A stretch of DNA of 60,252 nucleotides, counting the filler, from Nemertoderma westbladi (taxonomy: Eukaryota; Animalia; Xenacoelomorpha): the NCBI GenBank assembly GCA_032718475.1. It is 3 parts of 3 records of this genome, joined end to end, with 100 filler letters (N's around TTAATTAATTAA, not from the genome) between each part and the next. Parts side by side here need not be neighbours in the genome. Positions count along the whole stretch, not along the records: positions 1 to 23,894 come from JAUCBJ010005329.1; 2 more parts are not named here. One strand, 5' to 3'. Below, piece by piece: positions 2,155 through 60,252 of the stretch (position 1 is its first letter; every line of letters starts with the position of its first letter). A program made the position numbers and the translations under genes. The notes beneath the pieces are model-generated. The model saw nothing but the letters and a program-made list of their open reading frames with translations. It ran no database searches and was not told the origin of the DNA.

Positions 2155-3021
2155 TTAACAATACTTACATGATTTGGACCTATTATAGTTTACAGTACAA
2201 TCGTCCAGCTAAGTTCTAACTGCTTTGATGCGAGGTATGTTGACTGGTGAGCTCAGCAGTGGATTCGGGTATTTATTCTACTGTGGGGCGAGCCACGAAG
2301 TGAGTGAGCCTTAGCGTAGTGGTACCATTAATCAACCTGTGGGGCGAGCCACGAAGTGAGTGAGCCTTAGCGTAGTGGTACCATTAATCAACCTGTCGTT
2401 CTGTCGTTCTGTCGTTCTGTCGTTCTGTCGTTCTGTCGTTCTGTCGCGTTTTTTTTCAGTATTTTATTTTAAACGTTAATAACTCGGCCAATCCTTGATG
2501 AAATCTATCCAAACTTGGTACACATGTTGTTTGGCAAAAGTTTGAAAATTTTCCAAGTAGAATTTGCGTGGGGCCTTCGTGCAGCATCAGTGTAACTGTT
2601 ATTGCAGTTATAATAAATTTATTTATCCAAATTTAAAATGCGTTAAATTATTATTACTGTAGGATAAATCAGCTGGTTTTCTGACAAATTTTGCAATTCT
2701 GCATGTACCATGTGTACCGGTACTGTCAGGCTGTACTCAATCCCTGAATCGAGAATCCTGCTAGGGTGCATTTATAGTCAGATGCCGTCCGATCCGATCC
2801 GATCCGATGCATTTCGGCAATTATTGTAGCTACAACTGTCAGACTGCAGACTGTACAAGCCTAGCTGCTTAGGCTAGGCCTACTTCTGTTTTGCCTAACA
2901 CTGAACGCAGTCTGGTTGTATGACTATTGCTGTATTGGCCTATTGCATTAGGCTATTGTATATGGCTGTATGGCATGGCAGTACTGCAGTATGCAGGTAT
3001 GGCAGTACTGCAGTACACAGT

Positions 3022-3895
3022 ATGGGATCATTCGTAGCTCTGTAGCTGACTGTGGTGTTCAGAAGGAAATCGGACGCGCGTTGGACTGTTGGATGTCCTG
3101 GAATGGAGTCTACCGACCAACTTGCAGGGTGAGGCTGTCCCTCTGCAGCTCTGATCCTGGGCGGTGGAGACTGTGCTGATGGCGGCGGAAGCGGGAAGAC
3201 CGGGGCATTCTGTATCCCGATACTACAGCTGGTCCATGAAACTCTACGGTACAAACTCCGAGATGGAAAACTCGATGGGAAATCGGGGGGAAGAACTAGG
3301 CCTACGAAATTTCAGTTGAACTCATTCGATAGAGCGATAGAGGTGACCAGTTGGCCATCTCCCCGGACGGTTGCTGTGTCATGCGCGTGGCCAGAGGAGT
3401 TGGCACGGTACCCGGACGACTAAAGGAATAGTCGGATCCGGTCGTTTCGTTACTATTCAGCTATTACGAGGCGACGGTAAAGGACGAGGTGCGAGGGCCC
3501 ATGCCGGGTTAGTTGGAGCACCGGAAGCGCGACACTCGATATCGGGACTGATAAAAATAGTTTTGGCTTCGGAGGAAACGGTAAGAAGTGTTTCGGGCGG
3601 CATTTTGACGACTATGGACAACCATATGGACTAGGCGACGTGATCGGTTATCGGATCGATCTGGATGTGGGCACAATTGGGTACCGGTACAGTAAAAACG
3701 GAAGTGATCTCGGGAAAGCTTTCGACAGTTCGAGATTCCCGCTAATTTACGCAAACTCCCGTTATTCCTGTATTCCCGCAGTCTGTGGTCTGTCGGTATC
3801 TTTAAAGAATGCTGAAATTATGTTTATTTTCGCCGAATTTATCCGTTTATCTGCGCATCTTCTTTCCGGGTACACCATTGTATCCCGGGCGCCGT
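3022..3895 (+). pseudogene. DDX1: Frameshifted 5' fragment of DEAD-box helicase DDX1 (Q motif, motif I and SPRY insertion)
   Basis: Translation across frameshifts gives MGSF..DCGVQKEIGRALDVLEWSLPTNLQGEAVPLILGGGD-VLMAAE..GKTGAFCIPILQLVHETL. It continues WHGTRTTKG..YYYEATVKDEGPCRVSWSTGSATLDIGTDKNSFGFGGNGKKCFGRHFDDYG..SKNGSDLGKAFEIP..LKNAEIMF. This matches the DDX1-specific N-terminus plus SPRY domain. Many small indels. Confidence 0.9.
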
Positions 3896-4072
3896 TTTGT
3901 ACCTACAATGTACCAAGTTGTGTAACTTTTGTACCCATTGTACCAAGTTGTGTACCTTTTGTACTTATTATGTACCAAGTTGTGTACCTTTTACACCTAC
4001 TATGTACCAAGTTGCGTACATTTTGTACCTATTATGTAACAGTTGTGTATGGTCTTGTACCTATTTATGTTT
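3895..4072. repeat. Short ~30-bp tandem repeat (TGTACCAAGTTGTGTACCTTTTGTACC...) at the end of the DDX1 fragment
   Basis: About 5 degenerate copies visible. Confidence 0.75.
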
Positions 4073-6384
4073 CCTAAAGTAAAGATGTGTAATCTGATTA
4101 TTATTATGATTGCTACATAACATGGTATAGAGACTATCTTATCTTATAACCGTTATCAACAGTGTTGTAGTCATAATTTGCAACGTTTCATTGAAATAAT
4201 CACTTGAAATATTCGAATACATTCTACCCATAATAATTAATACTAATTATTGTAAAACTATTTTTCTATGCGGAAATCCAGACTGAAAGTCTCTCTCTTG
4301 ATATCTGTTGTTCCTTTGCGTCAATATAATTAGAGTGTATTTAACAAATTTATTGTATCCGTTGAAATGTATTTGTAAACAATAATTTAGTTGTCATGAT
4401 TTTTAAGTAAGATTAGGTTAATTAAATAAAGCCTTTATAAAATGTATTGTTTATTGTAAACGTTTATAAACGCCAGCTTTAAATCGTTCAACAAAAACAT
4501 TCCTAACAACAACTTTGTCTAAACCCGTCTATGTCTAATTATCTAATTATTTAGTTAATGGAAGGGTCGCAGCCGTCAGCTGGTGGTAACCCGTATCGTT
4601 CCAAAGATGTGGAGGAGAGACGCGACGTGTGTGGCACTCCTTTCCATTAATTTGTAATGATATCGTTTATTGTTTTGGTTAGTTAGGTTTCGGTATGGAG
4701 ATGGTGTTCTGCGCAATAAAATAATTATCTTATATTTAATTATTTAAGAGGCAATAAATATACTTTAGTATTTTAGCCGCACAAACTTTCATAACATGTG
4801 TGGTAGTGGAAAATATTGAAGTAATTAAATGACTATTTTAAGACTATTTTAATTGCAAAATTATATTATATTAAGAAATTTACTGCTTAAATTTACTTGC
4901 ACATGCCTTAAACCACAAAGCCACTGAACTTACCAATGGAGATATTTCCAGTGACCATACCATGGACCAATCGCAGGAGACATCTACCTTCTCACCTGTG
5001 ACACCTTCACATGTGCAATGTGGGCAGTGCTGAAAGGCTATGCAACCAATACAGAACCAAACTACTATGTTTGTATGTTGGATGGGCTAAATGTCTAGCA
5101 TCAATAAGCTAAACTTGGAACCACCATTATACTATCAGCTGGCTATGATGCCACTACTGCTCAAATTTTGGCGCCCCTTGGAAGGTGCCCCCCCCCCCCC
5201 CCCCTTCTGCACGCCACTGCACGTTTCGGAAACAAGCTACAGTTCGAAGAAGAAAACTTTGAAGAAAATTTCCCGATTTTTTCCCGAATTCCCAAAGTTC
5301 CAGAATTTTACAAAAATATCAGAGTGTTTTATAATGGATATCTCCGGGTAGTAACTAAATTTTGAAAAAAAATAGAAGTCTTTTCCCAGAGAGGTCTGTT
5401 TTCGAGCAAGTCGGTACCCACTGGTACGGATTTACCACATTACCTTTCGCTAGGGAGGGGGCAAGCCCCCCCCCCCCCAAGATACCTGCGGAGGGGCAGA
5501 TGCCCCCTTGCCCCCCCCCCCCCCCCTAGAACCGCCACTGTCTACCGAGCATCACCATCCTGTCCCATAATAACTTCGTAGCGGCTTTGTGTCGACGGTC
5601 GAAAAATGACCATACAGTAGTGCTTTTTTTCTGACCTTCGTCCTGGAACCCTACGCAGCCGGGTACTATATAGCTATACACCGGCTTTCATTGCAGTAAA
5701 GAAAAGTGTAGGCGCCGTATAACCGCGGTATAATCAGTTTTCAGATCTAGCTCCTCTACTAATTTATTATGCCCTATATTAATTAAATAAAACACCGCAA
5801 AGATAGGTGGAATATTCTGATATTCAATTAAAGGGATATTGCGTTAGAGAAACTGTGATAGGCAAAACAGAAGTAGGCCTAAGCAGCTAGGCTTGTACAG
5901 TCTGCAGTCTGACAGTTGTAGCTAGAATAATTGCTGAATTGCATCGGATCGGATCGGATTGGACGGCATCTGACATATAATTCTACCTCGAATCCTGCAA
6001 TCAGTCAATACTGCAATACTGGTCAGCCGGTACCATACACTGCAGACATGCCATATCATGTAATCTAATTAAACATGGCCCCGGAACCCTTGCGGTGATT
6101 ATAGTTTAGGCCTAATTAGCCCAGTACCGGCACCGGTAATAATAATATAATAGTTTAGATAGTTACCGCTAATCATTCAGTCATTGGCACGGTACACCGT
6201 ATTGCTGTACTGCCGTTGTAGTGCGCACCGTAGGTACCACCCATGGCCTACTACACACAGGCCATGACAAGGACTTTGCTGTGAAATTAGCGTAGGCTGA
6301 CTGTGCTGATTATGGTACTGTCAGACTGTGGTACCTAAGCTATATACTGTTAGGTATATTGCTGTATTGGGGTGGGGTTAGGAA

Positions 6385-6845
6385 TACACTCAGACACTGG
6401 GAATACGGCGGTCGGTCAGATCGTAATGCGGGCCACTGCCAAGTTCCTCATGCCTCACTCCGGTCACCCACCTTGGAGTGCGGTGGGAAGAGTCCCACTT
6501 ACTGACTTACGTCGACGACTGGACGAATCGACGAGGATTGCGATCTGGGTTTAGCGGCGGCCCGGATCCTGGTATCGCCTGGGGGAAATGGTTGAACGCC
6601 GGGCATACTTGTATCGCACTGGATTACGTTCTCTGCGACGTGAAAGTGTGAAGCGAATTCGTTGTCGAATTGGGTCGAAAGCTGCGGGAATTCTACTGTT
6701 CTACGGGAGTAAACCGCAGCGGTCCGGTGACTACGGACGGATACTACTGGGATAAGCAGGTATTTCGATCGAGTTTCTCGTATTCTCGATGCTCGACAGC
6801 TCGAGGCGGATAGAGAGTTGGTTGTGTTGGGCGGTGTTGTTCAAT
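6385..6845 (+). pseudogene. Frameshifted internal fragment of a class-3 aldehyde dehydrogenase (ALDH3-like)
   Basis: Translation across indels gives [84 protein letters not shown]..FDRV. This follows ALDH3 motifs (YTGxTxVG, LELGGKSP, WGKxxNxGQTCIAPDY, DYGRI). An in-frame TGA and several insertions are present. Confidence 0.85.
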
Positions 6846-6989
6846 TCTATCAAACGTATTAAATAATTGGTAAAATAATAAAAACACACCAGATAAAGAT
6901 ACTGAGCTTATGGTAAAGAGATAGGCCGAACTTACAATTTCCAAATAGATTGTTCATATAATAAATATATTTTTGGTATTTGATTTCAA

Positions 6990-7165
6990 GATAGGGGGGG
7001 GGGGGGGACTGGACGCAATAAAAATTAATCCCTCTCCAGGGGAAATTGGACGCAAATAACAACAGCTGATTACTCTCAAAAATAAAACTGTAACCTGTTC
7101 TATTGTGTTTACTTTATTGTTTTGGTTAAAATAACGTGCCACTGTAACCTGCTCCTTTCCCAAGC
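6990..7165 (+). mobile_element. Truncated copy of the MITE family seen at 15463-15705
   Basis: Near-identical AATAAAAATTAATCCCTCTCCAGGGGAAATT...CTGTAACCTGCTCCTTTCCC segment. Confidence 0.7.
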
Positions 7166-7563
7166 TGCATCCCTAGGTATTATTATTATAAAGAGCGTCA
7201 GCCTGCGTTTAATAAATATATTTTAATACAAAACAGGTCGAACACAAAGAGGCTTATAATGAAGACGAGTACTGCATTGATTATATTCCTATAAACCACC
7301 TGGCTTTGCATATTGAACGTGTGTTTGGAAATAAGTTCGTGCTACCCTTCCGTGGGTGGTAGATGTCGCGGTTATGTATTGGTGGGTGGGGGGAGGGGGG
7401 GGGGGGGTGCAGATTAAAAGGGGTGAACACGTACTTTCCCCCTTTCTTTGATTAATTGGTGGTGTGGGTTAATCTCTCATAACCTGATTTTGTGATACAG
7501 TCGCACAATTTTAATTTGTATCTCATAACTGGGCCTCGTGCTGCGCGAAGGCCCCACGAACGT

Positions 7564-9055
7564 GTCGTTCTGTCGTGTTCAATTTTAAACGTTAATAACT
7601 CGGCCAATCTTTGATGAAATCTATCCAAACTTGGTACACATGTTGTTTGGCAAAAGTTTAGAAATTTTCCAAGTAGAATTTCCGTGTGGCCTTCGAGAAG
7701 CTAAGATAATAGCAGTTAATTAGTTAATTAAGTTGATTGCGGTGAAAACGCCATTTTCAACCTGCCTTTTAAAGGAAATTAATTGTTTTACAGTATAAGA
7801 TTTAAATAATTATACTTAAAAATTATACAGATATAATCCCCATACGCCATTCTATTATAGTTTTTAATTAGTTTAAGTGATTTGCTTTAATAAATGTGTC
7901 TTTAATTGATCTAAACGTAATTAAACCGCACAATTATTGAGTACAAATTTAATCCTTCCCATTATTGGTCAAGTCTCTGCTGGTGTGGAGCTAGCTGCTG
8001 GGAGTTGTGGCGCTGTAGACTAACCTGAGAGGAATTGTAATAGAGGCAACCAGTATTGCTATTCCAGCCCAATCACTGAATTGTGTTTATTATAGGCTGG
8101 ACGGGCCGCATAACCGTTCGACTATTACTACTATTGCTATCTCAGTTAAATGACAGATATAATAACATAAATACAATCCATGGCATGGCTGTTGTAGGCT
8201 TCTGAAATAGTTTATTCCACAATGTATATGTCTGGTTATTTTTTAATTGAATTTTTGCAAAGTAGTAAAATTAATGTTCTTAAAAATAATATTATTATTT
8301 TATATGTAACCTAGGAAATTAGCTACATTTTTTCGCTGCAGCTTTAAGAGTGTACATTGATTTAATATTATTTCAATACCCATATTACTACATCGGCATA
8401 AGATGCGTTGGCGTTGTATCACACATCTCCACATATCACACATCTCCACATAGATGTATCAACAGTTACTCGCACAGTTTCGAAACTTCGCATAGTTATA
8501 ACTGTATAAAGATCGTCAGTCTGCGTTTAGGAAAAATATTTTATGACAAAACAGGACAAGCGACGAGCGCAACGAGGCATATAATGAAGACGAGTACTGC
8601 GTTGATTAAATTATTATATAAACCACCTGGCTTCACATATTGATCGCATCCCTAGTTATTATTATTATAAAGATCGTCCTAGCCTGCGTTTAAGAAATAT
8701 ATTTAAATACAAAACAGGACGAACGCAAAGAGGCTTATAATGAAAACGAGTACTGCGTTTATTATTTTCCTATAAACCACCTGGCTTTGCATATTTAACG
8801 TGCGATTGGAAATAAGTTCGTGCTACCCTTCCGTGGGTGGTAGATGTCGCGGTTATGTATTGGTGGTTGGGAAGGGTGGGGGGGGGGGGGGGGGGGGAGA
8901 TTAAAAGGGGTGAACACGTACTGTCCACCTTTCTTTGATTGATTGGTGGTGTGGGTAAATTTCTCAAAACCTGATTTTGTGATACAGTCGCTGCATTTTA
9001 ATTTGTATATAATAACTAGGCCTCGTGCTGCGCGAAGTCCCCACGAACGTGTTGT
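7564..9055 (+). mobile_element. Second head-to-tail copy of the Helentron-like element
   Basis: The core at 7585-7695 repeats 2468-2580, and the ~390-bp 3' block at 8649-9050 repeats 7170-7560, ending in CTCGTGCTGCGCGAAG(T/G)CCCCACGAACGTG. Confidence 0.6.
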
Positions 9056-23377: not shown

Positions 23378-23745
23378 CAGGGTCGTAGCCAGGAATTTGT
23401 GTGGGGGGTGGATGGAGATACAAAAATATAATATAATCTTATAATATAAGTATTGTGTTAGGGGGGGGGGGGGGGGGTGGGGGGATCTGGGGGCGAAGCC
23501 CCGAATGTACAGTAAGTACAGGGGCGTATTTAAACTATTATAATGTGAAATTGACCTTACACTTGAACACTGTCTTACAACATCACACTTACTTATTACA
23601 ACTACCTTGTAGCACTTGGGGGCACCTCCTCCTACACAAACTGTATTTTTTAATCTTATAAGTTTACTTCAGTACTTAGCATAAGTTCCAAAATTTTCGC
23701 TGGGCTGGATGCATACCAGTATCCACCCCCATGCCTACGCCCCTG
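23378..23745. mobile_element. hAT-family MITE
   Basis: TIRs CAGGGTCGTAG and CTACGCCCCTG with a perfect 8-bp TSD TCCGCTAC (23370-23377, 23746-23753). Confidence 0.85.
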
Positions 23746-23894
23746 TCCGCTACTTCCAGGATGGCCTCCCAGAAAATAAGATTACATTGTGGCTCGGATG
23801 ATTAAGGTATAGAGAAAGATACAGTATTTACTATTTATCGGGGTGCAGTCACTTACTCAATATACCACTCGATTTAGTTATTTTTGTTCGCGCT

Positions 23895-23994
23895 NNNNNN
23901 NNNNNNNNNNNNNNNNNNNNNNNNNNNNNNNNNNNNNNTTAATTAATTAANNNNNNNNNNNNNNNNNNNNNNNNNNNNNNNNNNNNNNNNNNNN
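23895..23994. other. Assembly gap linker
   Basis: N44-TTAATTAATTAA-N44, a six-frame stop linker. Confidence 0.97.
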
Positions 23995-24215
23995 AGGATA
24001 TATTATTCATATTATATTATCATATCAATTTATATTATTCATATTATACATATTTGGGATTAAATTCTAGTTAGAGCTAATTTTTGAGCTGTTATTTAGT
24101 TTTTAGAATTTTCATTTTAATTTCTGACTAGTTGAGTTTTATTATTAGCAAAAAACAACCATTCTTTGTCACGTTGCCCACTTAGTCGCATTAAATTAAT
24201 GAATTCAGCATCTAA

Positions 24216-24420
24216 TGTGGGGCGAACCACGAAGTGAGTGCAGTCTTAACATATGGGTGCCATTAACGAGTTGTCTGTCTATCTGTGTTGTCTGTCTGTG
24301 TTTGATCGCTAATAACTCAGTCATTCCTTGATGAAATTAAACGAAACTTGGTACGTATCTAGTCCGTCAAAAGTTTAGAAAGAATCTGAAGTTTGGTAAA
24401 AAATGAACGAACGCAACGAG
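24216..24420 (+). mobile_element. 5' fragment of a Helentron-like element
   Basis: TGTGGGGCGAACCACGAAGTGAGTG..., (TCTG)n and the AATAACTC...TTGATGAAAT...AAACTTGGTAC core shared with the copy at 2281. Confidence 0.55.
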
Positions 24421-25561: not shown

Positions 25562-26129
25562 GTAGTTCTAGAACAGTTAAATATTATAACTTAATAAATA
25601 AGTTTCTTGTGGGGCGAGACACGTATGGCGAGCCATCAGCGAACTGATATAATTATACTATGGCCGTTTTTCAAAAGTCTGTGTGTGACGTGTGTGTGTG
25701 TGTGTGTGTCGGTAGCCATAAATGTCGGAAGCCATAATCGAAGTTAATATCTTCAGCTAAATTGTATGGTTGAGTCATTTTGAACGGTCTCTCCATGGAA
25801 ATTAATTGTTTAGCACCATACGATTAAAGTTATTTTGCACTGAAATTAGATATCTGGAATCCATGTACCCCATCCCATTATAGTTTTTTATTTTTTCAAG
25901 TGATTTGCGTTAATAAATGTATTTTTAATTGATTTAAACATAATTAACATTGTAAATTCATACGCTGATTCCATTCTCCCCCATAGAGCCTAAGGCATGG
26001 CAAGGGCAGCCGTGCCCAATAATATTTCTTGAAGTTTTACAGTTGGCAAGCTAAGTCTTTGACCAAGCCAGTGCCTAGGCTAGTACACAAGGACATATTA
26101 GTCCAGTACAAGGAATAGTGCTCCTTCAA

Positions 26130-34188: not shown

Positions 34189-37100
34189 TCATTAACATTA
34201 ATGTGCCAGTTTCATTAACATTAATGTGCCAGTTTCATTAACATTAATGTGCCAGTTTCATTAACATTAATGTGCCAGTTTCATTAACATTAATGTGCCA
34301 GTTTCATTAACATTAATGTGCCAGTTTCATTAACATTAATGTGCCAGTTTCATTAACATTAATGTGCCAGTTTCATTAACATTAATGTGCCAGTTTCATT
34401 AACATTAATGTGCCAGTTTCATTAACATTAATGTGCCAGTTTCATTAACATTAATGTGCCAGTTTCATTAACATTAATGTGCCAGTTTCATTAACATTAA
34501 TGTGCCAGTTTCATTAACATTAATGTGCCAGTTTCATTAACATTAATGTGCCAGTTTCATTAACATTAATGTGCCAGTTTCATTAACATTAATGTGCCAG
34601 TTTCATTAACATTAATGTGCCAGTTTCATTAACATTAATGTGCCAGTTTCATTAACATTAATGTGCCAGTTTCATTAACATTAATGTGCCAGTTTCATTA
34701 ACATTAATGTGCCAGTTTCATTAACATTAATGTGCCAGTTTCATTAACATTAATGTGCCAGTTTCATTAACATTAATGTGCCAGTTTCATTAACATTAAT
34801 GTGCCAGTTTCATTAACATTAATGTGCCAGTTTCATTAACATTAATGTGCCAGTTTCATTAACATTAATGTGCCAGTTTCATTAACATTAATGTGCCAGT
34901 TTCATTAACATTAATGTGCCAGTTTCATTAACATTAATGTGCCAGTTTCATTAACATTAATGTGCCAGTTTCATTAACATTAATGTGCCAGTTTCATTAA
35001 CATTAATGTGCCAGTTTCATTAACATTAATGTGCCAGTTTCATTAACATTAATGTGCCAGTTTCATTAACATTAATGTGCCAGTTTCATTAACATTAATG
35101 TGCCAGTTTCATTAACATTAATGTGCCAGTTTCATTAACATTAATGTGCCAGTTTCATTAACATTAATGTGCCAGTTTCATTAACATTAATGTGCCAGTT
35201 TCATTAACATTAATGTGCCAGTTTCATTAACATTAATGTGCCAGTTTCATTAACATTAATGTGCCAGTTTCATTAACATTAATGTGCCAGTTTCATTAAC
35301 ATTAATGTGCCAGTTTCATTAACATTAATGTGCCAGTTTCATTAACATTAATGTGCCAGTTTCATTAACATTAATGTGCCAGTTTCATTAACATTAATGT
35401 GCCAGTTTCATTAACATTAATGTGCCAGTTTCATTAACATTAATGTGCCAGTTTCATTAACATTAATGTGCCAGTTTCATTAACATTAATGTGCCAGTTT
35501 CATTAACATTAATGTGCCAGTTTCATTAACATTAATGTGCCAGTTTCATTAACATTAATGTGCCAGTTTCATTAACATTAATGTGCCAGTTTCATTAACA
35601 TTAATGTGCCAGTTTCATTAACATTAATGTGCCAGTTTCATTAACATTAATGTGCCAGTTTCATTAACATTAATGTGCCAGTTTCATTAACATTAATGTG
35701 CCAGTTTCATTAACATTAATGTGCCAGTTTCATTAACATTAATGTGCCAGTTTCATTAACATTAATGTGCCAGTTTCATTAACATTAATGTGCCAGTTTC
35801 ATTAACATTAATGTGCCAGTTTCATTAACATTAATGTGCCAGTTTCATTAACATTAATGTGCCAGTTTCATTAACATTAATGTGCCAGTTTCATTAACAT
35901 TAATGTGCCAGTTTCATTAACATTAATGTGCCAGTTTCATTAACATTAATGTGCCAGTTTCATTAACATTAATGTGCCAGTTTCATTAACATTAATGTGC
36001 CAGTTTCATTAACATTAATGTGCCAGTTTCATTAACATTAATGTGCCAGTTTCATTAACATTAATGTGCCAGTTTCATTAACATTAATGTGCCAGTTTCA
36101 TTAACATTAATGTGCCAGTTTCATTAACATTAATGTGCCAGTTTCATTAACATTAATGTGCCAGTTTCATTAACATTAATGTGCCAGTTTCATTAACATT
36201 AATGTGCCAGTTTCATTAACATTAATGTGCCAGTTTCATTAACATTAATGTGCCAGTTTCATTAACATTAATGTGCCAGTTTCATTAACATTAATGTGCC
36301 AGTTTCATTAACATTAATGTGCCAGTTTCATTAACATTAATGTGCCAGTTTCATTAACATTAATGTGCCAGTTTCATTAACATTAATGTGCCAGTTTCAT
36401 TAACATTAATGTGCCAGTTTCATTAACATTAATGTGCCAGTTTCATTAACATTAATGTGCCAGTTTCATTAACATTAATGTGCCAGTTTCATTAACATTA
36501 ATGTGCCAGTTTCATTAACATTAATGTGCCAGTTTCATTAACATTAATGTGCCAGTTTCATTAACATTAATGTGCCAGTTTCATTAACATTAATGTGCCA
36601 GTTTCATTAACATTAATGTGCCAGTTTCATTAACATTAATGTGCCAGTTTCATTAACATTAATGTGCCAGTTTCATTAACATTAATGTGCCAGTTTCATT
36701 AACATTAATGTGCCAGTTTCATTAACATTAATGTGCCAGTTTCATTAACATTAATGTGCCAGTTTCATTAACATTAATGTGCCAGTTTCATTAACATTAA
36801 TGTGCCAGTTTCATTAACATTAATGTGCCAGTTTCATTAACATTAATGTGCCAGTTTCATTAACATTAATGTGCCAGTTTCATTAACATTAATGTGCCAG
36901 TTTCATTAACATTAATGTGCCAGTTTCATTAACATTAATGTGCCAGTTTCATTAACATTAATGTGCCAGTTTCATTAACATTAATGTGCCAGTTTCATTA
37001 ACATTAATGTGCCAGTTTCATTAACATTAATGTGCCAGTTTCATTAACATTAATGTGCCAGTTTCATTAACATTAATGTGCCAGTTTCATTAACATTAAT

Positions 37101-40100
37101 GTGCCAGTTTCATTAACATTAATGTGCCAGTTTCATTAACATTAATGTGCCAGTTTCATTAACATTAATGTGCCAGTTTCATTAACATTAATGTGCCAGT
37201 TTCATTAACATTAATGTGCCAGTTTCATTAACATTAATGTGCCAGTTTCATTAACATTAATGTGCCAGTTTCATTAACATTAATGTGCCAGTTTCATTAA
37301 CATTAATGTGCCAGTTTCATTAACATTAATGTGCCAGTTTCATTAACATTAATGTGCCAGTTTCATTAACATTAATGTGCCAGTTTCATTAACATTAATG
37401 TGCCAGTTTCATTAACATTAATGTGCCAGTTTCATTAACATTAATGTGCCAGTTTCATTAACATTAATGTGCCAGTTTCATTAACATTAATGTGCCAGTT
37501 TCATTAACATTAATGTGCCAGTTTCATTAACATTAATGTGCCAGTTTCATTAACATTAATGTGCCAGTTTCATTAACATTAATGTGCCAGTTTCATTAAC
37601 ATTAATGTGCCAGTTTCATTAACATTAATGTGCCAGTTTCATTAACATTAATGTGCCAGTTTCATTAACATTAATGTGCCAGTTTCATTAACATTAATGT
37701 GCCAGTTTCATTAACATTAATGTGCCAGTTTCATTAACATTAATGTGCCAGTTTCATTAACATTAATGTGCCAGTTTCATTAACATTAATGTGCCAGTTT
37801 CATTAACATTAATGTGCCAGTTTCATTAACATTAATGTGCCAGTTTCATTAACATTAATGTGCCAGTTTCATTAACATTAATGTGCCAGTTTCATTAACA
37901 TTAATGTGCCAGTTTCATTAACATTAATGTGCCAGTTTCATTAACATTAATGTGCCAGTTTCATTAACATTAATGTGCCAGTTTCATTAACATTAATGTG
38001 CCAGTTTCATTAACATTAATGTGCCAGTTTCATTAACATTAATGTGCCAGTTTCATTAACATTAATGTGCCAGTTTCATTAACATTAATGTGCCAGTTTC
38101 ATTAACATTAATGTGCCAGTTTCATTAACATTAATGTGCCAGTTTCATTAACATTAATGTGCCAGTTTCATTAACATTAATGTGCCAGTTTCATTAACAT
38201 TAATGTGCCAGTTTCATTAACATTAATGTGCCAGTTTCATTAACATTAATGTGCCAGTTTCATTAACATTAATGTGCCAGTTTCATTAACATTAATGTGC
38301 CAGTTTCATTAACATTAATGTGCCAGTTTCATTAACATTAATGTGCCAGTTTCATTAACATTAATGTGCCAGTTTCATTAACATTAATGTGCCAGTTTCA
38401 TTAACATTAATGTGCCAGTTTCATTAACATTAATGTGCCAGTTTCATTAACATTAATGTGCCAGTTTCATTAACATTAATGTGCCAGTTTCATTAACATT
38501 AATGTGCCAGTTTCATTAACATTAATGTGCCAGTTTCATTAACATTAATGTGCCAGTTTCATTAACATTAATGTGCCAGTTTCATTAACATTAATGTGCC
38601 AGTTTCATTAACATTAATGTGCCAGTTTCATTAACATTAATGTGCCAGTTTCATTAACATTAATGTGCCAGTTTCATTAACATTAATGTGCCAGTTTCAT
38701 TAACATTAATGTGCCAGTTTCATTAACATTAATGTGCCAGTTTCATTAACATTAATGTGCCAGTTTCATTAACATTAATGTGCCAGTTTCATTAACATTA
38801 ATGTGCCAGTTTCATTAACATTAATGTGCCAGTTTCATTAACATTAATGTGCCAGTTTCATTAACATTAATGTGCCAGTTTCATTAACATTAATGTGCCA
38901 GTTTCATTAACATTAATGTGCCAGTTTCATTAACATTAATGTGCCAGTTTCATTAACATTAATGTGCCAGTTTCATTAACATTAATGTGCCAGTTTCATT
39001 AACATTAATGTGCCAGTTTCATTAACATTAATGTGCCAGTTTCATTAACATTAATGTGCCAGTTTCATTAACATTAATGTGCCAGTTTCATTAACATTAA
39101 TGTGCCAGTTTCATTAACATTAATGTGCCAGTTTCATTAACATTAATGTGCCAGTTTCATTAACATTAATGTGCCAGTTTCATTAACATTAATGTGCCAG
39201 TTTCATTAACATTAATGTGCCAGTTTCATTAACATTAATGTGCCAGTTTCATTAACATTAATGTGCCAGTTTCATTAACATTAATGTGCCAGTTTCATTA
39301 ACATTAATGTGCCAGTTTCATTAACATTAATGTGCCAGTTTCATTAACATTAATGTGCCAGTTTCATTAACATTAATGTGCCAGTTTCATTAACATTAAT
39401 GTGCCAGTTTCATTAACATTAATGTGCCAGTTTCATTAACATTAATGTGCCAGTTTCATTAACATTAATGTGCCAGTTTCATTAACATTAATGTGCCAGT
39501 TTCATTAACATTAATGTGCCAGTTTCATTAACATTAATGTGCCAGTTTCATTAACATTAATGTGCCAGTTTCATTAACATTAATGTGCCAGTTTCATTAA
39601 CATTAATGTGCCAGTTTCATTAACATTAATGTGCCAGTTTCATTAACATTAATGTGCCAGTTTCATTAACATTAATGTGCCAGTTTCATTAACATTAATG
39701 TGCCAGTTTCATTAACATTAATGTGCCAGTTTCATTAACATTAATGTGCCAGTTTCATTAACATTAATGTGCCAGTTTCATTAACATTAATGTGCCAGTT
39801 TCATTAACATTAATGTGCCAGTTTCATTAACATTAATGTGCCAGTTTCATTAACATTAATGTGCCAGTTTCATTAACATTAATGTGCCAGTTTCATTAAC
39901 ATTAATGTGCCAGTTTCATTAACATTAATGTGCCAGTTTCATTAACATTAATGTGCCAGTTTCATTAACATTAATGTGCCAGTTTCATTAACATTAATGT
40001 GCCAGTTTCATTAACATTAATGTGCCAGTTTCATTAACATTAATGTGCCAGTTTCATTAACATTAATGTGCCAGTTTCATTAACATTAATGTGCCAGTTT

Positions 40101-43100
40101 CATTAACATTAATGTGCCAGTTTCATTAACATTAATGTGCCAGTTTCATTAACATTAATGTGCCAGTTTCATTAACATTAATGTGCCAGTTTCATTAACA
40201 TTAATGTGCCAGTTTCATTAACATTAATGTGCCAGTTTCATTAACATTAATGTGCCAGTTTCATTAACATTAATGTGCCAGTTTCATTAACATTAATGTG
40301 CCAGTTTCATTAACATTAATGTGCCAGTTTCATTAACATTAATGTGCCAGTTTCATTAACATTAATGTGCCAGTTTCATTAACATTAATGTGCCAGTTTC
40401 ATTAACATTAATGTGCCAGTTTCATTAACATTAATGTGCCAGTTTCATTAACATTAATGTGCCAGTTTCATTAACATTAATGTGCCAGTTTCATTAACAT
40501 TAATGTGCCAGTTTCATTAACATTAATGTGCCAGTTTCATTAACATTAATGTGCCAGTTTCATTAACATTAATGTGCCAGTTTCATTAACATTAATGTGC
40601 CAGTTTCATTAACATTAATGTGCCAGTTTCATTAACATTAATGTGCCAGTTTCATTAACATTAATGTGCCAGTTTCATTAACATTAATGTGCCAGTTTCA
40701 TTAACATTAATGTGCCAGTTTCATTAACATTAATGTGCCAGTTTCATTAACATTAATGTGCCAGTTTCATTAACATTAATGTGCCAGTTTCATTAACATT
40801 AATGTGCCAGTTTCATTAACATTAATGTGCCAGTTTCATTAACATTAATGTGCCAGTTTCATTAACATTAATGTGCCAGTTTCATTAACATTAATGTGCC
40901 AGTTTCATTAACATTAATGTGCCAGTTTCATTAACATTAATGTGCCAGTTTCATTAACATTAATGTGCCAGTTTCATTAACATTAATGTGCCAGTTTCAT
41001 TAACATTAATGTGCCAGTTTCATTAACATTAATGTGCCAGTTTCATTAACATTAATGTGCCAGTTTCATTAACATTAATGTGCCAGTTTCATTAACATTA
41101 ATGTGCCAGTTTCATTAACATTAATGTGCCAGTTTCATTAACATTAATGTGCCAGTTTCATTAACATTAATGTGCCAGTTTCATTAACATTAATGTGCCA
41201 GTTTCATTAACATTAATGTGCCAGTTTCATTAACATTAATGTGCCAGTTTCATTAACATTAATGTGCCAGTTTCATTAACATTAATGTGCCAGTTTCATT
41301 AACATTAATGTGCCAGTTTCATTAACATTAATGTGCCAGTTTCATTAACATTAATGTGCCAGTTTCATTAACATTAATGTGCCAGTTTCATTAACATTAA
41401 TGTGCCAGTTTCATTAACATTAATGTGCCAGTTTCATTAACATTAATGTGCCAGTTTCATTAACATTAATGTGCCAGTTTCATTAACATTAATGTGCCAG
41501 TTTCATTAACATTAATGTGCCAGTTTCATTAACATTAATGTGCCAGTTTCATTAACATTAATGTGCCAGTTTCATTAACATTAATGTGCCAGTTTCATTA
41601 ACATTAATGTGCCAGTTTCATTAACATTAATGTGCCAGTTTCATTAACATTAATGTGCCAGTTTCATTAACATTAATGTGCCAGTTTCATTAACATTAAT
41701 GTGCCAGTTTCATTAACATTAATGTGCCAGTTTCATTAACATTAATGTGCCAGTTTCATTAACATTAATGTGCCAGTTTCATTAACATTAATGTGCCAGT
41801 TTCATTAACATTAATGTGCCAGTTTCATTAACATTAATGTGCCAGTTTCATTAACATTAATGTGCCAGTTTCATTAACATTAATGTGCCAGTTTCATTAA
41901 CATTAATGTGCCAGTTTCATTAACATTAATGTGCCAGTTTCATTAACATTAATGTGCCAGTTTCATTAACATTAATGTGCCAGTTTCATTAACATTAATG
42001 TGCCAGTTTCATTAACATTAATGTGCCAGTTTCATTAACATTAATGTGCCAGTTTCATTAACATTAATGTGCCAGTTTCATTAACATTAATGTGCCAGTT
42101 TCATTAACATTAATGTGCCAGTTTCATTAACATTAATGTGCCAGTTTCATTAACATTAATGTGCCAGTTTCATTAACATTAATGTGCCAGTTTCATTAAC
42201 ATTAATGTGCCAGTTTCATTAACATTAATGTGCCAGTTTCATTAACATTAATGTGCCAGTTTCATTAACATTAATGTGCCAGTTTCATTAACATTAATGT
42301 GCCAGTTTCATTAACATTAATGTGCCAGTTTCATTAACATTAATGTGCCAGTTTCATTAACATTAATGTGCCAGTTTCATTAACATTAATGTGCCAGTTT
42401 CATTAACATTAATGTGCCAGTTTCATTAACATTAATGTGCCAGTTTCATTAACATTAATGTGCCAGTTTCATTAACATTAATGTGCCAGTTTCATTAACA
42501 TTAATGTGCCAGTTTCATTAACATTAATGTGCCAGTTTCATTAACATTAATGTGCCAGTTTCATTAACATTAATGTGCCAGTTTCATTAACATTAATGTG
42601 CCAGTTTCATTAACATTAATGTGCCAGTTTCATTAACATTAATGTGCCAGTTTCATTAACATTAATGTGCCAGTTTCATTAACATTAATGTGCCAGTTTC
42701 ATTAACATTAATGTGCCAGTTTCATTAACATTAATGTGCCAGTTTCATTAACATTAATGTGCCAGTTTCATTAACATTAATGTGCCAGTTTCATTAACAT
42801 TAATGTGCCAGTTTCATTAACATTAATGTGCCAGTTTCATTAACATTAATGTGCCAGTTTCATTAACATTAATGTGCCAGTTTCATTAACATTAATGTGC
42901 CAGTTTCATTAACATTAATGTGCCAGTTTCATTAACATTAATGTGCCAGTTTCATTAACATTAATGTGCCAGTTTCATTAACATTAATGTGCCAGTTTCA
43001 TTAACATTAATGTGCCAGTTTCATTAACATTAATGTGCCAGTTTCATTAACATTAATGTGCCAGTTTCATTAACATTAATGTGCCAGTTTCATTAACATT

Positions 43101-43584
43101 AATGTGCCAGTTTCATTAACATTAATGTGCCAGTTTCATTAACATTAATGTGCCAGTTTCATTAACATTAATGTGCCAGTTTCATTAACATTAATGTGCC
43201 AGTTTCATTAACATTAATGTGCCAGTTTCATTAACATTAATGTGCCAGTTTCATTAACATTAATGTGCCAGTTTCATTAACATTAATGTGCCAGTTTCAT
43301 TAACATTAATGTGCCAGTTTCATTAACATTAATGTGCCAGTTTCATTAACATTAATGTGCCAGTTTCATTAACATTAATGTGCCAGTTTCATTAACATTA
43401 ATGTGCCAGTTTCATTAACATTAATGTGCCAGTTTCATTAACATTAATGTGCCAGTTTCATTAACATTAATGTGCCAGTTTCATTAACATTAATGTGCCA
43501 GTTTCATTAACATTAATGTGCCAGTTTCATTAACATTAATGTGCCAGTTTCATTAACATTAATGTGCCAGTTTCATTAACATTA
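34189..43584. repeat. Homogeneous 23-bp satellite (ATGTGCCAGTTTCATTAACATTA), ~408 copies, running into the gap
   Basis: Exact 23-bp periodicity (printed lines recur every 1380 bp); no variant unit noticed. Confidence 0.98.
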
Positions 43585-43684
43585 NNNNNNNNNNNNNNNN
43601 NNNNNNNNNNNNNNNNNNNNNNNNNNNNTTAATTAATTAANNNNNNNNNNNNNNNNNNNNNNNNNNNNNNNNNNNNNNNNNNNN
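43585..43684. other. Assembly gap linker
   Basis: N44-TTAATTAATTAA-N44. Confidence 0.97.
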
Positions 43685-43734
43685 ATTTCCTCCACTTGTA
43701 GTATTCTCACACCCCCCCCCCCCCCCCCCCTAAC

Positions 43735-48212: not shown

Positions 48213-51200
48213 TCATCCTCCTCTCCATCATCATCCCCCCCAACCTCCCTATTCTCCATCCCGGCCTGCTCCATCTGCTGCTCCAGATCTACTTCCTCTA
48301 TATCCGTCATTACTTTCGGCTCCATCCCGATCTTAAAGGTCCCCTTTAGTTTGAGTATCTCCTCCCGTACTGCCTCCAAGGCGTCGTTTAACGCCTTTAT
48401 CCCTCTCTCGCGTTCCACGGTCACCGTCGTCATTACGTACTTGGGCGGCGCTATCAGGTTGATCTTTATCGCCATCTCCTCCGTGGAACACGCGAGTCCG
48501 GCTCGCAACGCCGATTTGATCGCGTCGATCCCCTCGTAAGCGTAGCAGGACACTTCGATATCCGATCGGATCTTAACGCTAGATGGCATCAGTCGTCGGA
48601 ATATCACCTGAAGGTAGTTAATTTATCGGTAGTTTGAGATTAAATTCATAATTATTTGTATATCCAAAGCCGGCAAAATAAATGACTATTGACACGCCCT
48701 TCAATGCTCGCTACGCTCGTTCACCCAACTCACCTTAAGCAACGCATCCCGCGTCTTCCCGTCCAGCTCGCTCGCTACATTCGTTCACCCAACTCACCTT
48801 CAGCAACGCATCCCGTGTCTTTCCGTCCAGCTCGCTCGCTACACTCTTTCACCCAACTCACCTTCAGCAACGCATCCCGTGTCTTTCCGTCCAGCTCGCT
48901 CGCTACACTCGTTCACCCAATCACCTTCAGCAACGCATCCCGTGTCTTCCCGCCCAGCTCGCTCGCTACACTCGTTCACCCAACTCACCTTCAGCAACGC
49001 ATCCCGTGTCTTCCCGTCCAGCTCGCTCGCTACACTCGTTCACCCAACTCACCTTCAGCAACGCATCCCGTGTCTTCACGTCCACCTCGCTCGCTACACT
49101 CGTTCACCCAACTCACCTTCAGCAACGCATACCGTGTCTTCCCGTCCAGCTCGCTCGCTACACTCGTTCACCCAACTCACCTTCAGCAACGCATCCCGTG
49201 TCTTTCCGTCCAGCTCGCTCGCTACACTCGTTCACCCAATCACCTTCAGCAACGCATCCCGTGTCTTCCCGTCCAGCTCGCTCGCTACACTCGTTCACCC
49301 AACTCACCTTCAGCAACGCATCCCGTGTCTTCCCGTCCAGCTCGCTCGCTACACTCGTTCACCCAACTCACCTTCAGCAACGCATCCCGTGTCTTCACGT
49401 CCACCTCGCTCGCTACACTCGTTCACCCAACTCACCTTCAACAACGCATCCCGTGTCTTCCCGTCCAGCTCGCTCGCTACACTCGTTCACCCAACTCACC
49501 TTCAGCAACGCATCCCGTGTCTTCCCGTCCAGGGGGATCGCTACACTCGTTCACCCAACTCACCTTCAGCAACGCATCCCGTGTCTTCCCGTCCAGCTCG
49601 CTCGCTACACTCGTTCACCCAACTCACCTTCAGCAACGCATCCCGTGTCTTCACGTCCAGCTCGCTCGCTACACTCTTTCACCCAACTCACCTTCAGCAA
49701 CGCATCCCGTGTCTTTCCGTCCAGCTCGCTCGCTACACTCGTTCACCCAACTCACCTTCAGCAACGCATCCCGTGTCTTCCCGTCCAGCTCGCTCGCTAC
49801 ACTCGTTCACCCAACTCACCTTCAGCAACGCATCCCGTGTCTTCCCGTCCAGCTCGCTCGCTACACTCGTTCACCCAACTCACCTTCAGCAACGCATCCC
49901 GTGTCTTCACGTCCAGCTCGCTCGCTACACTCTTTCACCCAACTCACCTTCAGCAACGCATCCCGTGTCTTTCCGCCCAGCTCGCTCGCTACACTCGTTC
50001 ACCCAATCACCTTCAGCAACGCATCCCGTGTCTTCCCGTCCAGCTCGCTCGCTACACTCGTTCACCCAACTCACCTTCAGCAACGCATCCCGTGTCTTCC
50101 CGTCCAGCTCGCTCGCTACACTCGTTCACCCAACTCACCTTCAGCAACGCATCCCGTGTCTTCACGTCCACCTCGCTCGCTACACTCGTTCACCCAACTC
50201 ACCTTCAGCAACGCATCCCGTGTCTTCCCGTCCAGCTCGCTCGCTACACTCGTTCACCCAACTCACCTTCAGCAACGCATCCCGTGTCTTCCCGTCCAGA
50301 TCGCTCGCTACACTCGTTCACCCAACTCACCTTCAGCTACGCATCCCGTGTCTTCACGTCCACCTCGCTCGCTACACTCGTTCACCCAACTCACCTTCAG
50401 CAACGCATCCCGTGTCTTCCCGTCCAGCTCGCTCGCTACACTCGTTCACCCAACTCACCTTCAGCAACGCATCCCGTGTCTTCCCGTCCAGCTCGCTCGC
50501 TACACTCTTTCACCCAACTCACCTTCAGCAACGCATCCCGTCTTTCCGTCCAGCTCGCTCGCTACGCTCGTTCACCCAACTCACCTTCAGCAACGCGTCC
50601 CGTGTCTTCCCGTCCAGCTCGCAGGGGTCCAACACCGACGGTTCCTGAACCGCCTGTCGGAAGAAATCGTAAGACGCGGCGTCCTTCTTCATGCGGGCGT
50701 CGAAGAACCAGGCGGTGCGCTGGTACAACGCGAGGAACTCCTCGTTGTCCATCTCCAATAACTCCGCTGTGTGTCGGAGGATCTGGTTGACCGCCTTACC
50801 ACGATGGAATCGCTCCTCGCAAACCCGCTGTTCTTCAGCAGAGGCGCGACGTTTAGACAGATCGATGTAACCCTGAAATAAAAATAATATAAATTTATTA
50901 AAAATAATTGAAATATGTAAGCCGCAGCGTTGAAGTACCGGTACTCTAAGAAGCTGCCCATACAAAATTGTTTAGAACTCTAACAAGCACAGCATTTATG
51001 TATTATGTTTATGTATACACCGGCTCAGCATCTGAGCATTTACCATACGAAGCGAAACTTGTACCCCTTCTTTAGTTAGATTTAATTATTATTTTTTCAA
51101 ACTAAGCCCCCACGCGAGGAAATTTGTATCAATTTTATTAAGTTAAATAAATTTAAATCAATTTAAATCATTTGTTGCTGAATAAACATGTGTACATATT

Positions 51201-51733: not shown

Positions 51734-52594
51734 CGTAAATGTACCGTTACTTAATTAATAAGAATCAATAAACTGAAACAATTACAGAATTAAGTAATTA
51801 GATAAGATAAATAAGGAACCTATAACTGTAACCTGGTAACCTAACAAGTTGTGATTTTTACGTTGTGCAGAAATCTTAATTCCGCTTTCCGGCAGTCCGG
51901 TTTTATGTTGCGGTACCCGGGTACGGTACGGGTACCGTAGTCTGAACTAATAAATTAGCATATTTCTGCATTTATATTTAACAGGGAAATAAACAATAAT
52001 TCTGAATTCCTATTAATTGTTATTCCAAGTGATGTAGTAGGCCTATCTACAGAGCGAGAACGAAACCTGGAAACTTTTAAAACAGGTTAATAAAGCCTGA
52101 AAGTAGCCTAGTAGGCTACTGTAGTAACACAAGTAGGCCTACCGGCCTACCGCATACCGCAATGCCGTATCCACGGGACTGTCTGACTGTCGGTCTTTTG
52201 AATTTTTTTTAAATAGATAGATACGCCCCCCAATAATCGGGGAAACATGTGTGAAACATCGGGGAAACATAGTTAGGTAAAAAATTAAGTAAAATAGGTT
52301 ACCAGTGTTAAGGTGCTTCTGCTACATAGTTCTGTAGTTTTAATTATGATATTTTATACAGCAGTTTGGCAGTATGCACTACTGAACTATAGGAAAAGAT
52401 TGGCGTAACAGTACTGCAGTATGCTAGTCAGAGTCAGAGTCAGTCGAAGTTTTGAATTTCCCTCCTTAGTCCTTAGTATATGCTTTTAATTGTTGTTGTG
52501 GTTGTGTTTAAGCTAATTCTAGAATATTACAACCTATTCGCCATAACTAGATGCTTCGGCATATAACAGTATAAAGGGATTTTGTAATAGTTCA

Positions 52595-55316: not shown

Positions 55317-55808
55317 TGAATCATATTATTCTGCAACCAATAATTTACTCTTTTAGACGAATTTGTGCGTTTTTTTGCCGGACTAACAAAACAATTTTTG
55401 GCGCGTTCTGTGCGAGATTGGCGATATTTTAAAAGATTCTGAGGCTCAAATATGTTGCTCAAATGACTGAATAGCCCAAATAAAAAAGTTGGTGCATACT
55501 CGACGAGTTGAAATCGGTGAAATTCGACTTTAAATTTTCCAAACCGCTATTTTTCAGTGACCCCGTGATCGAAACGCCACAATAAATGTGCGCAACCAAA
55601 ATGTATGTAGAGTTTGTCATTAAAATTATTTTTGCCTACCTGCTTGAGTTTTTGAGATATTGGATGCAGTGGCGTGGTGGGAACAAGTGAGGGGCCCGGG
55701 AAATCCCAAAATAAGGGCCCATTTATAAATGCCAGACCAGCTATAATTTTGACCACCCCACCCCCCCCCCCCCCCCCATCATCATGTAAAAAATATTTCT
55801 TGAATAAT

Positions 55809-57195: not shown

Positions 57196-60100
57196 TTATA
57201 ATTGTAGCAAGGCTTTAAGTGTGGTGCTTCCTTCGCAAAGTTTTTCAATTATAACCGATGATTCAATTCCCTCAGTCCAACACCTGTTTAATTTCATCAG
57301 GAGAAATGCCTCCAAATGTTCCTGAGTCAAAGTACTGCGTAGACGAGTTAAAATAAGTTTCAACTGAGAGAAGACTCGTTCACAGCAAACCTGATAAAAT
57401 AAAATTTAGTTATTACAATTAATAAAATTACCTACAAAAGAATACAGGTAATAATTATGTAGGCTACTCAACTTATCTTCAGTAATTAGTTTCAGTTTCA
57501 ATATTTTATAACAAACTCTATTTTTCTATAATTCTATTTGTAAATTTTACATAATGTATTTATTATTATTATTGGTGAATTATATTAAGACAAATGATGA
57601 ATATATTTATCTGTCTCACATTACCTGGGTCATGGGTAGAGTTAGAACTGTTCTGTAAACCATGCAGAGAGTCTCATATGCCGAGGAGAAACAATTATAT
57701 TCGACCATAACCTTTAAACAACCGACGAGGCAGTCGCCAAGGCATTTCCCAGGATGTTCCACACATATATCGTCTTCACATTCATCGACATCAGTTATTG
57801 GTTTGTATGGAATCGTAGGTTGTTTGAGTAGGGACCATTCATTGGCAAATTGGGAAAGTTCACTTCTAAATCTGTTCAAATCAAGATCAGGAAGGATGGT
57901 GAGAAATCCTTCTAAGTGTTCTACTCTCAATAGTTCATTATTTGAAGATATTTTTCCAAAATTCTTTGGATCTAAGAGTTCTAAGCTCTGATACAATTTT
58001 CCATGTTCGGAAAAGCGATTAACAATTTGATTAATAGCCGTATCTATAACAACATTGTAGACCCTTGCTTTGAACTCATCCTTTGGATCTTTAAAAGGTT
58101 CATCGCTTGCCATTTCGCCAGGCATTTTTTTCTTTTTTCGGCAACGTTTCTCTAGAAAAGTACTGCTAACGATAACATCAGAGTTCAAATCTTCTAGTTT
58201 CGAGTTCATCTGTGAGACAAATTGATTGGCAGTGTCCTCAAGTGTCACGAAATCTCTTGAAATTGACTGTAATTGATTCTTTACAGTTGAAACTTGGCGC
58301 CAGGCTTGGGCATAATCCATACCACTCGATTGAAGGTAATCAGATAATGGTGTCGTGAACATGAAAATCCTGAGAAAGAGAAACGCCACCATAACAGTCT
58401 CATATTTAAGCAAGTTTTCACACAAAGATTTCGCTTCTGATCGGTGAATGGCTTTAAAATGATCAGATTTTGAAATTTCGTCTAAACATAATACTAGTAC
58501 AGGATACAAGCATGTACTACTTTGATCACCAGCAGAGTGATAAGTACCAAAAATCTTCACTGTGGCATTGTTTTTGGCTCGCCAGCGGGTTTTTCCAAGA
58601 TTTGTTAATCGTTGCATGCATCCTTCTCCCAACTGTTGCTCCAAGGTTTTCTCCCAAACTGCCATACGCTTGTAACTATCAGCGAAGAACACATAGACTG
58701 CTTGCAACAACCCAAAGAATGAAACACATTCCAAAGAAGAACAGCTGTCGGTGATCACGAGGTTCAACACATGTGAATAGCACCATGTGTGGATGTGGTT
58801 TGGAGATACATCTTTCAGTTTAGCTTGTAGCCCATTGTACTCGGCACTCATATTGGAGGCACCATCAAAAGCATCTGCAATGCATTGGCTCAAGGGAATT
58901 TGAAACTTCTCACAAACCTGATTAAGTGCATTAAAGAGGCCTTGTGAAGAGGTGTCAGAGCTCGTATTAACCAGAGCCAACATTTTCTCATAAACAGTAG
59001 AACCTACCACATACCTTACTGCAATACAGCACTGATCTTTAGTTGTAATGTCCTGAGTACTGTCAATCATCAATCCATATATACCAGCCTCCTTGATATC
59101 AGTAACAATTTTCTGCCGTAAAAGATCACCTATGATATTCACTATGGCTGTAAACGTATCTGAACTGAGAAACGAAACAAATGAACCCCGCCCTTTTACT
59201 GTATGTTCAGAGCCACCCTTTCTTGCTTTGTCCGTCGAATACTTGACACACTTGTCAACATGGCGCTTTAGAATATCGTTGTGTTTAGCCAACTCTTTTA
59301 TGAGTTCAAGAAAGTTGCCATGGTTAATATCATTATTCAATGAATGTAAACCTTCCCCCCTGTGTGATCTAGATGGAAGACCTTGCTTACCAATAAACTT
59401 TACAGCATCTATGATTACAGAAACAACAGCTCTTCTTTCTACAACTTGTCGGTTCCTTAAATCCCAACACTCTGTTGTTAGCAATTGAGGCAATGTCATT
59501 TTAGCTTTAAAAGCAAAGAATTGTGATGCTGATCTGTGATGATATTGTGAACTTTCATGTTCACTTATACGTTGATATGTATGACTCCAATCAGAAAAAC
59601 CATCAATGGAAACAAAGGGTGACTCACTGTTTACTTCTCCAAATGCTAGACAAACAGAACAGTACATAGCTTGCTGATCTACAGAGTAAGAAAGCCAAGA
59701 CCGTTGAAGGACATTAGGATTATTGTTCTTACACTGTCTATTGTAAGCTTTAGAAACAGAAAATGGTAGGCCAGGTAAAACAGGATGTATTGGATGTTTC
59801 TCCATAAACTCAAGTCTCAAAGAAGCCCCAGGTCGTCGAAAACAGTGAATATGTTCAGTAGAATTAATAAATCCACTGATAGGCTGTTCTTCAGGCACAA
59901 CACCACTAAGAGGAAGAGCAGCATCTCTAAAGCTAACCACAATAGCGCTGGTACTGGTACATACTCTGTCATCTCCTTGGTCATGATCATCCAACGAACT
60001 GATGTGATCCAGTGATGTTTGATTCTGACCAATTGCAATGTTATCATGGTCATCAAGCCTACAAGGCTGACTATTTGGCATGCTCGTCCTGGTAGCTGCA

Positions 60101-60213
60101 GATCCACCTACAGGATTCCAAAGTTGAGTTAGTTTGGCACACTTTACCGCTTGTATCGATCTTTCTTTTTCGCTTTTTTCTTTTCTCTTCCTGGAACCAC
60201 TTTTACATGACAT
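57196..60213 (-). CDS. hAT transposase (ZMYM1-like: TTF-type zinc finger, DUF4371-like region, hAT dimerisation domain), 2 exons (57625-60213, 57196-57390), 927 aa
   Basis: WLSYS..MYCSVCLAF..HESSQYH zinc finger, GNFLEL, IDSTQD, FDGASNM, WCYSH and TRW. The CAG|GTAATG..atcAG intron joins PMTQ to VCCERVFSQLKLILTRLRSTL, which supplies the catalytic Glu. Confidence 0.92.
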
Positions 60214-60252
60214 TGTTATTATTTGAATTAAATTAAATTGGCAGATATCCAA

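Follow-up and report, generated by a model that had tools for sequence, protein, structure and literature searches.

Five-base duplications around CAG or CTG in the genome of Nemertoderma westbladi: candidate excision footprints of a cut-and-paste transposon

What kind of process inserts eight bases into the DNA of an animal, again and again in such a way that CAG or CTG comes to stand between two copies of the same five bases? The question is raised by a stretch of 60,252 nucleotides from the xenacoelomorph Nemertoderma westbladi (assembly GCA_032718475.1; three parts joined with filler, hereafter the window), in which remnants of the genes DDX1 and ALDH3 are interrupted by the unit N5-C(A/T)G-N5 (N5-CWG-N5), with a net gain of 8 bases. 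The pattern is real and its units, here called scars, are insertions. There are good grounds to suppose that these insertions were left at the excision of a cut-and-paste transposon that would start with CAG, end with CTG and duplicate 5 bp of its target.

Cut-and-paste transposons are sorted by target-duplication length and by cleavage chemistry, and flank hairpins are the rule in the 5-bp families compared here, Transib and RAG-like (hAT5 by kinship). If the terminal bases of an element really stand between clean five-base duplicates, duplication length can be uncoupled from hairpin chemistry. Besides, the scar makes it easy to search for a transposase perhaps never assayed and, being a 13-letter signature, it can be counted in any assembly, which makes its species range and its record of landing sites directly testable.

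The scar pattern and its target

Counts in the window were made after removal of tandem repeats, which left 41,978 bases; low-complexity matches were dropped. Totals of 40, 42 and 43 sites appear below for this masked window, all for the same pattern and differing by filters alone. At duplication length 5 the CAG/CTG spacer was found 42 times against 1.5 expected from 20 shuffles; runners-up were GCA (10 against 1.4) and TCA (12 against 1.8), the next best spacers reaching 10-13. When the duplication length k was varied from 2 to 9, N(k)-CWG-N(k) gave 113, 32, 10, 43, 1, 0, 0 and 0 matches. This comparison of spacers and lengths with shuffled sequence, which the first-pass annotation had proposed for the whole genome and which here covers the window, singles out CAG/CTG, with an excess that peaks at length 5 only. 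Outside 2600-7000, where both multi-copy elements of the region are excluded, 23 matches remain in 37,769 bases against 1.2 expected.

The segment 2925-6804 holds 22 matches, compared with a mean of 0.124 and a maximum of 2 in 500 local dinucleotide shuffles. The enrichment reported for this segment is borne out, but the earlier figure of about 15 in 4 kb was an undercount. The 13 sites that had been spelled out (11 full, 2 trimmed) match to the letter, and 2925, 2961, 2979 and 3003 also carry the pattern; to judge from their sequence, 2979 and 3003 may be one scar copied by local duplication, and so not independent. The pattern had been described as a disruption of two captured genes, and DDX1 and ALDH3 are indeed hit, but it is window-wide and also clustered upstream of the eIF2-alpha gene. 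Trimmed scars, with CA or TG as spacer, exist at 3485 and 6785 as stated; as a class their excess is weak, at 10 matches (2.0 per 1000 dinucleotides), where CG reaches 2.7 (4 matches) and the five further spacer pairs lie between 0.7 and 1.25. A few raw matches are microsatellite edges. The CpG ratio near scars (0.89) does not differ from the background (0.94).

Target and spacer statistics rest on n=40 masked and filtered sites of this one window, with 35 different five-mers going by the top counts listed, or repeats of fewer than 3 each. In the duplicated five-mer, A occupies position 2 in 19/40 (p=0.0085) and T position 4 in 23/40 (p=1.7e-4), while G in position 2 and C in position 4 together make up only 3/80 (p=1e-5); positions 1 and 5 are A or T in 27/40 and 30/40, respectively. 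The target, formerly taken as non-specific, thus carries a weak symmetric W-A-N-T-W bias. The bias is still symmetric about base 3 when all scars are turned to the CAG reading (A2 19, T4 23), which fits attack by a dimer on two strands five bases apart and not a target of 8 bp that has lost bases from one of its sides. Both spacer forms occur, CAG 16 times and CTG 24 times (p=0.27), independently of the flanks: the first C complements the last duplicated base in 6/40. According to a hand count, 16/40 five-mers start or end with TA and 18/40 lack any TA.

Other short words are also in excess across the window: TACAGTA/TACTGTA (45 against 12.6 expected), TAGGCCTA (14 against 0.4) and TACCGGTA (8 against 0.6). 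These resemble what families that target TA and end in CAG, GG and CC, respectively, would leave behind, and their enrichment suggests that footprint-like words persist generally in this DNA.

Polarity of the insertions

The scars are well polarised as insertions, as had been claimed. In the DDX1 and ALDH3 remnants, whose flanking pieces match both proteins in the PDB, the reading phase changes by 2 at each 8-base unit and by 1 at the 7-base unit; the reading-frame landmarks were chosen partly from known motifs. Comparison with contigs of four coded runs (X1, X3, X4 and X6; indels from 12 listed rows of 183) gives presence and absence of whole units. Thus, the 8 letters of the 6792 unit are missing behind 6791 in contigs of X1 (5), X3 (1) and X6 (1) and in none of X4 (0), and TAGTTCAG is gained behind 6159, before TAGTT, in contigs of X1 (1) and X4 (1), which creates a further N5-CWG-N5 unit. 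The letters of the scars as they stand in the window recur in contigs from three other runs. Three contigs across the DDX1 start are shorter than the window by a net 8, 8 and 16 letters. A diverged low-depth contig (X1, record 1), which is probably the parent DDX1 gene, has 229 letters for 256 in the window, and 16 of its gap letters fall within 3101-3256. The extra length predicted from the frame shifts is 8+2+2+8+7=27, equal to this difference. Homolog searches with DDX1 pieces found nothing, and PDB searches with 6658-6759 and 3729-3809 found nothing relevant.

High-depth contigs match 3121-3508 and 3593-3786 without any difference, so most copies share those scars. Since the DDX1 and ALDH3 pieces sit in multi-copy elements whose copies have many scars in common, some of these scars must have been in place before the elements multiplied. 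Depth is not usable for copy number, because the contrast between perfect and diverged contigs disagrees between X1 (855-1174 against 19.9) and X4 (671-804 against 354).

Origin of the scars

Known systems are compared here as they are described in excerpts of the papers cited. In Tc1/mariner transposition the cut in the non-transferred strand falls within the element and leaves 3' overhangs, and the footprint of Sleeping Beauty is TACAGTA or TACTGTA (PMC6943129). Exchanging TA for a five-base duplication in this footprint gives exactly the unit observed. Both kinds of scar have CAG or CTG between target copies, both forms in about equal number and a fixed length; they differ in that the duplication here consists of five variable W-A-N-T-W bases instead of TA (which 18 of the 40 five-mers lack), that the gain is 8 and not 5, and that only scars are in hand, with constant CAG/CTG between the duplicates and no element that shows these bases as its ends. 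The scar is most likely a transposon footprint in a form that was not found described; it works like a Tc1 footprint outside the TA-bound membership of that group. A constant, flank-independent spacer and a five-base duplication, read with the logic of Sleeping Beauty, point to an element CAG...CTG with a 5-bp stagger and a cut 3 nt inside its ends.

According to this proposal, a transposase dimer would join the element to the target with a stagger of five bases, favouring the weak symmetric W-A-N-T-W, and gap filling after this staggered joining would create the five-base duplication. At excision the non-transferred strand would be cut 3 nt inside each end, leaving a 3' CAG overhang on each flank. 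End joining would then pair CAG with CAG, and the central A:A mismatch would be repaired to CAG or CTG about equally, with a net gain of 8. The transposon mechanism itself we infer, no element or transposase having been found. The element with CAG...CTG ends and Tc1-like excision suggested earlier stands as the best explanation of a spacer of fixed size that ignores its flanks, but not as an element in hand.

A wider proposal can be put forward tentatively, at slightly under even chances. There may be a hitherto undescribed, recently active lineage of eukaryotic DDE transposases that combines a 5-bp staggered, Transib-like nAnTn attack with a Tc1-like hydrolytic cut 3 nt inside CAG ends, being either a new superfamily or a branch of hAT5/Transib without the flank hairpin. 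Its scars, about 1 per kb here, would be the dominant source of 8-base insertions in the genome and a fossil map of its landings.

Several observations weigh against an origin from such a transposon. The donor was looked for in the window by scans for inverted-repeat pairs with 4-10-base duplications, for relaxed pairs and for CAG...CTG spacers of 4-60 bases, and by a further scan for CAG-start pairs with an exact 5-bp duplication and ends that agree in 8/10 positions within 20 kb. None of these scans found an element CAG...CTG with duplicates of 5 bp, so the search for CAG-start elements with terminal inverted repeats, also proposed at first pass, came back empty for the window. There was no donor among the 24 loose contig ends listed of 763, and exact scans of metagenome contigs for the scar pattern gave 0 matches. 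The sole CAG-ended element seen (23378-23745) has an 8-bp duplication, and the sole transposase in the window is a DUF4371 hAT that is not tied to the scars; no DD34-41D/E transposase with matching inverted repeats was found in it. As regards chemistry, plain hydrolysis would leave the same sequence as an inside nick from which a hairpin with CAG in its loop is formed, and the 16/40 five-mers with TA at an edge leave room for a Tc1-linked origin of some scars. As regards polarity, the 27-letter agreement with the diverged contig is a match of lengths, not an alignment, and two of its terms (+2, +2) come from frame phase alone; besides, a crude alignment to bacterial ALDH gave a 24-nt insertion at 6503-6526 and missed the 8-nt units at 6386, 6691 and 6792. 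The five-base CAG/CTG scar was not found in the literature searched, Repbase and Dfam lying outside this search, so a catalogued non-autonomous family may exist; the excerpts of PMC3517528, PMC9587614, PMC4455052 and PMC4298943 hold nothing decisive on it.

Could a known family with flank hairpins (hAT5, Transib or an ordinary hAT) make the units through palindromic filler or an offset cut? A net gain of 8 would suit such a family, and a CAG-ended element with an 8-bp duplication and a hAT transposase are present in the window. hAT5 has 5-bp target duplications (Kapitonov and Jurka 2007, via PMC12730594 and PMC9004415), and its ends could be CAG, G being the third base of hAT ends (PMC1131882). 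However, tested hATs excise via flank hairpins and leave palindromic filler instead of element ends, the comparison with hAT5 itself being by description only; scars of hairpin families vary with the flank and in length (PMC5873905), whereas the observed spacer is constant and flank-independent, contrary to what Ac-like excision would give. Ac-type hairpin scars, which served as an internal control, are not enriched in this DNA (6/83 at length 6, 9/162 at length 5). An ordinary 8-bp hAT with an offset cut would have shifted the symmetry axis, which stays on base 3 of the five-mer. Transib and RAG-like elements share the 5-bp duplication and, in two Transib families (cCASTGg, cCAWTGc), the preference for A at 2 and T at 4, but they have CAC ends, GC-rich targets and nick-hairpin cleavage (PMC1131882, PMC10462144); here the target ends are mostly A/T, and CAC/GTG spacers number 5 in comparison with 42 for CAG/CTG. 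A hAT5 or Transib lineage that had switched to inside cutting would be the preferred transposon under another name. An origin through flank hairpins is for these reasons quite unlikely. Two further groups bear on the comparison: TDD/Ginger2 makes five-base duplications and has TGT ends (PMC2836005), and in NuwaI, Pangu and NuwaII (PHIS) the 3 bp that are duplicated are themselves CWG or ANT (PMC4482050). Both motifs are thus target words of the PHIS groups, but a scar has a single CWG, which is newly gained and which the empty site lacks.

The three remaining explanations dispense with a new element. Ordinary TA-targeting Tc1-like elements would leave CAG/CTG, and templated repair would copy three extra flank bases; the excess of TA-CWG-TA in the same DNA (45 against 12.6) and the five-mers with TA at an edge speak for this, but the 18 five-mers free of TA do not, and templated repair predicts a spread of lengths that is at odds with 10 matches at k=4 (4.5 expected), 42-43 at k=5 and 1 at k=6, so it appears highly improbable. 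A transposon-independent process of the host, in which a nuclease makes 5-base overhangs that are filled in with capture of a fixed trinucleotide, is very unlikely. It would accord with the lack of a donor element, and clustering near a gene start would suit a chromatin-linked source of breaks, but the spacer is exactly what two CAG overhangs would give, other footprint-like words abound in the same DNA, and, to our knowledge, no repair pathway inserts a C(A/T)G that is always the same and self-complementary. Finally, one might invoke chance, slippage, errors of assembly or the simple multiplication of a few repeats on account of the two clusters within multi-copy elements and the matches at microsatellite edges. 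The probability of this is negligible, since the masked sites are 40 distinct ones and the same letters recur in other runs; it is refuted by the 42 matches against 1.5, by presence and absence in contigs and by the 23 against 1.2 outside the repeats.

Location of the scars and surrounding DNA

The window is eukaryotic, with a first exon of eIF2-alpha, an exon of an RNA polymerase large subunit and a DUF4371 hAT transposase frame. Scar density reaches 7.5 per kb in the DDX1 piece, 10.5 in the ALDH3 repeat and 8.9 upstream of eIF2-alpha, three regions chosen after the data had been seen, for a mean of 0.95. The intact polymerase exon and the hAT frame have 0 scars each where about 2.6 are expected at the mean rate. 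The density in 2925-6804 partly reflects unselected gene fragments in a Pack-MULE-like element and in a second repeat. Scars would last where frameshifts are free of cost, that is, in captured gene fragments and in DNA upstream of genes; open chromatin is only a candidate cause of the clustering.

The DDX1 piece is borne by a 3.2-kb carrier (2762-5989) with inverted repeats of about 140 bp and a 9-bp duplication at 2753-2761 and 5990-5998, across which contigs join from 2752 to 5990 and from 2761 to 6000, the empty-site joints of other copies. It looks like a Pack-MULE as described in an excerpt of PMC5225508, sharing inverted repeats of more than 100 bp, a duplication within the 8-10-bp range and a captured fragment of a host gene. 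This carrier is a substrate of the scars and not their source, and no MULE transposase was seen. Further pieces derived from low-copy DNA lie within it (contigs match 4100-4430 with divergence). It is nested in a second repeat of far higher depth (about 2600-2761 and 5990-6900), which contains the ALDH3 fragment.

Five overlapping or nested units (2925, 2961, 2979, 2989 and 3003) occupy 2925-3015, directly upstream of the DDX1 start codon. The DDX1 remnant (3022-3830, plus strand), identified by PDB protein matches, is an intron-less, frameshifted 5' fragment with DEAD motif I and SPRY. CTG scars at 3035-3047 and 3081-3093 each shift the frame by 2. At the CAG scar 3141-3153 the match to human DDX1 (8tbx) changes frame, from residues 18-37 to 36-78. 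The SPRY-coding part has a CAG scar at 3453-3465 (frame shift of 2), followed by the trimmed scar at 3485-3496, which has TG as spacer, gains 7 bases and shifts the frame by 1. The SPRY match to DDX1 (4xw3) stops in its current frame at the CAG scar 3721-3733, and a CTG scar (3763-3775) lies close to the end of the remnant. Two other small changes were seen in DDX1: a perfect 8-base tandem duplication at 3327-3342, which is another +8 event, and a one-base gain from ACGT to ACTGT at 3168-3174. The word GACTGTG recurs, also at 3047 and 6298, and may be a further small type of scar.

Scars 5812 and 5929 (5812-5941) lie at or within the right inverted repeat of the carrier, and 5929 has a decayed mirror counterpart in the left one, near 2810-2822. 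Four more (6006, 6173, 6317 and 6357; 6006-6369) fall in the high-depth repeat, where it does not code for protein. The frameshifted ALDH3 fragment (6380-6840, plus strand) carries scars at 6386, 6497, 6514, 6691 and 6792 and trimmed ones at 6446 and 6785. In another +8 event, at 6514-6534, the five-mer of the 6514 scar occurs a third time, behind a spacer of another sequence, which suggests repeated hits at one site. One Ac-type hairpin scar (+8) was seen at 6775-6790, a single clean case of anecdotal value.

In the rest of the window, eight scars cluster at 51780-52574, upstream of eIF2-alpha, whose first exon is intact and has its start codon at 51676 on the minus strand. The element at 23378-23745 is 368 bp long and hAT-like; its ends are CAGGG, and the two copies of its 8-bp duplication are identical. 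The DUF4371/ZMYM1-like hAT transposase has an open frame of at least 878 codons (57616-60252, minus strand), an apparent last exon near 57300-57400, then a 36-bp satellite and a CAGTGGCG end, with a possible end of the element near 55667; DUF4371 hATs probably belong to the Tip100 group. Repeats at 2280-2600, 7500-7700, 24216-24400 and 25608-25720 contain short motifs in pairs as well as microsatellites of the CTGT type and bring Helentron-associated elements to mind. The gaps at 23894-23996 and 43585-43685 are filled by the same TTAATTAATTAA, a nearly perfect 23-bp satellite extends over 9.4 kb (34190-43585), and the unit of a 64-bp tandem array at 48720-50620 includes the exon end and splice donor of eIF2-alpha.

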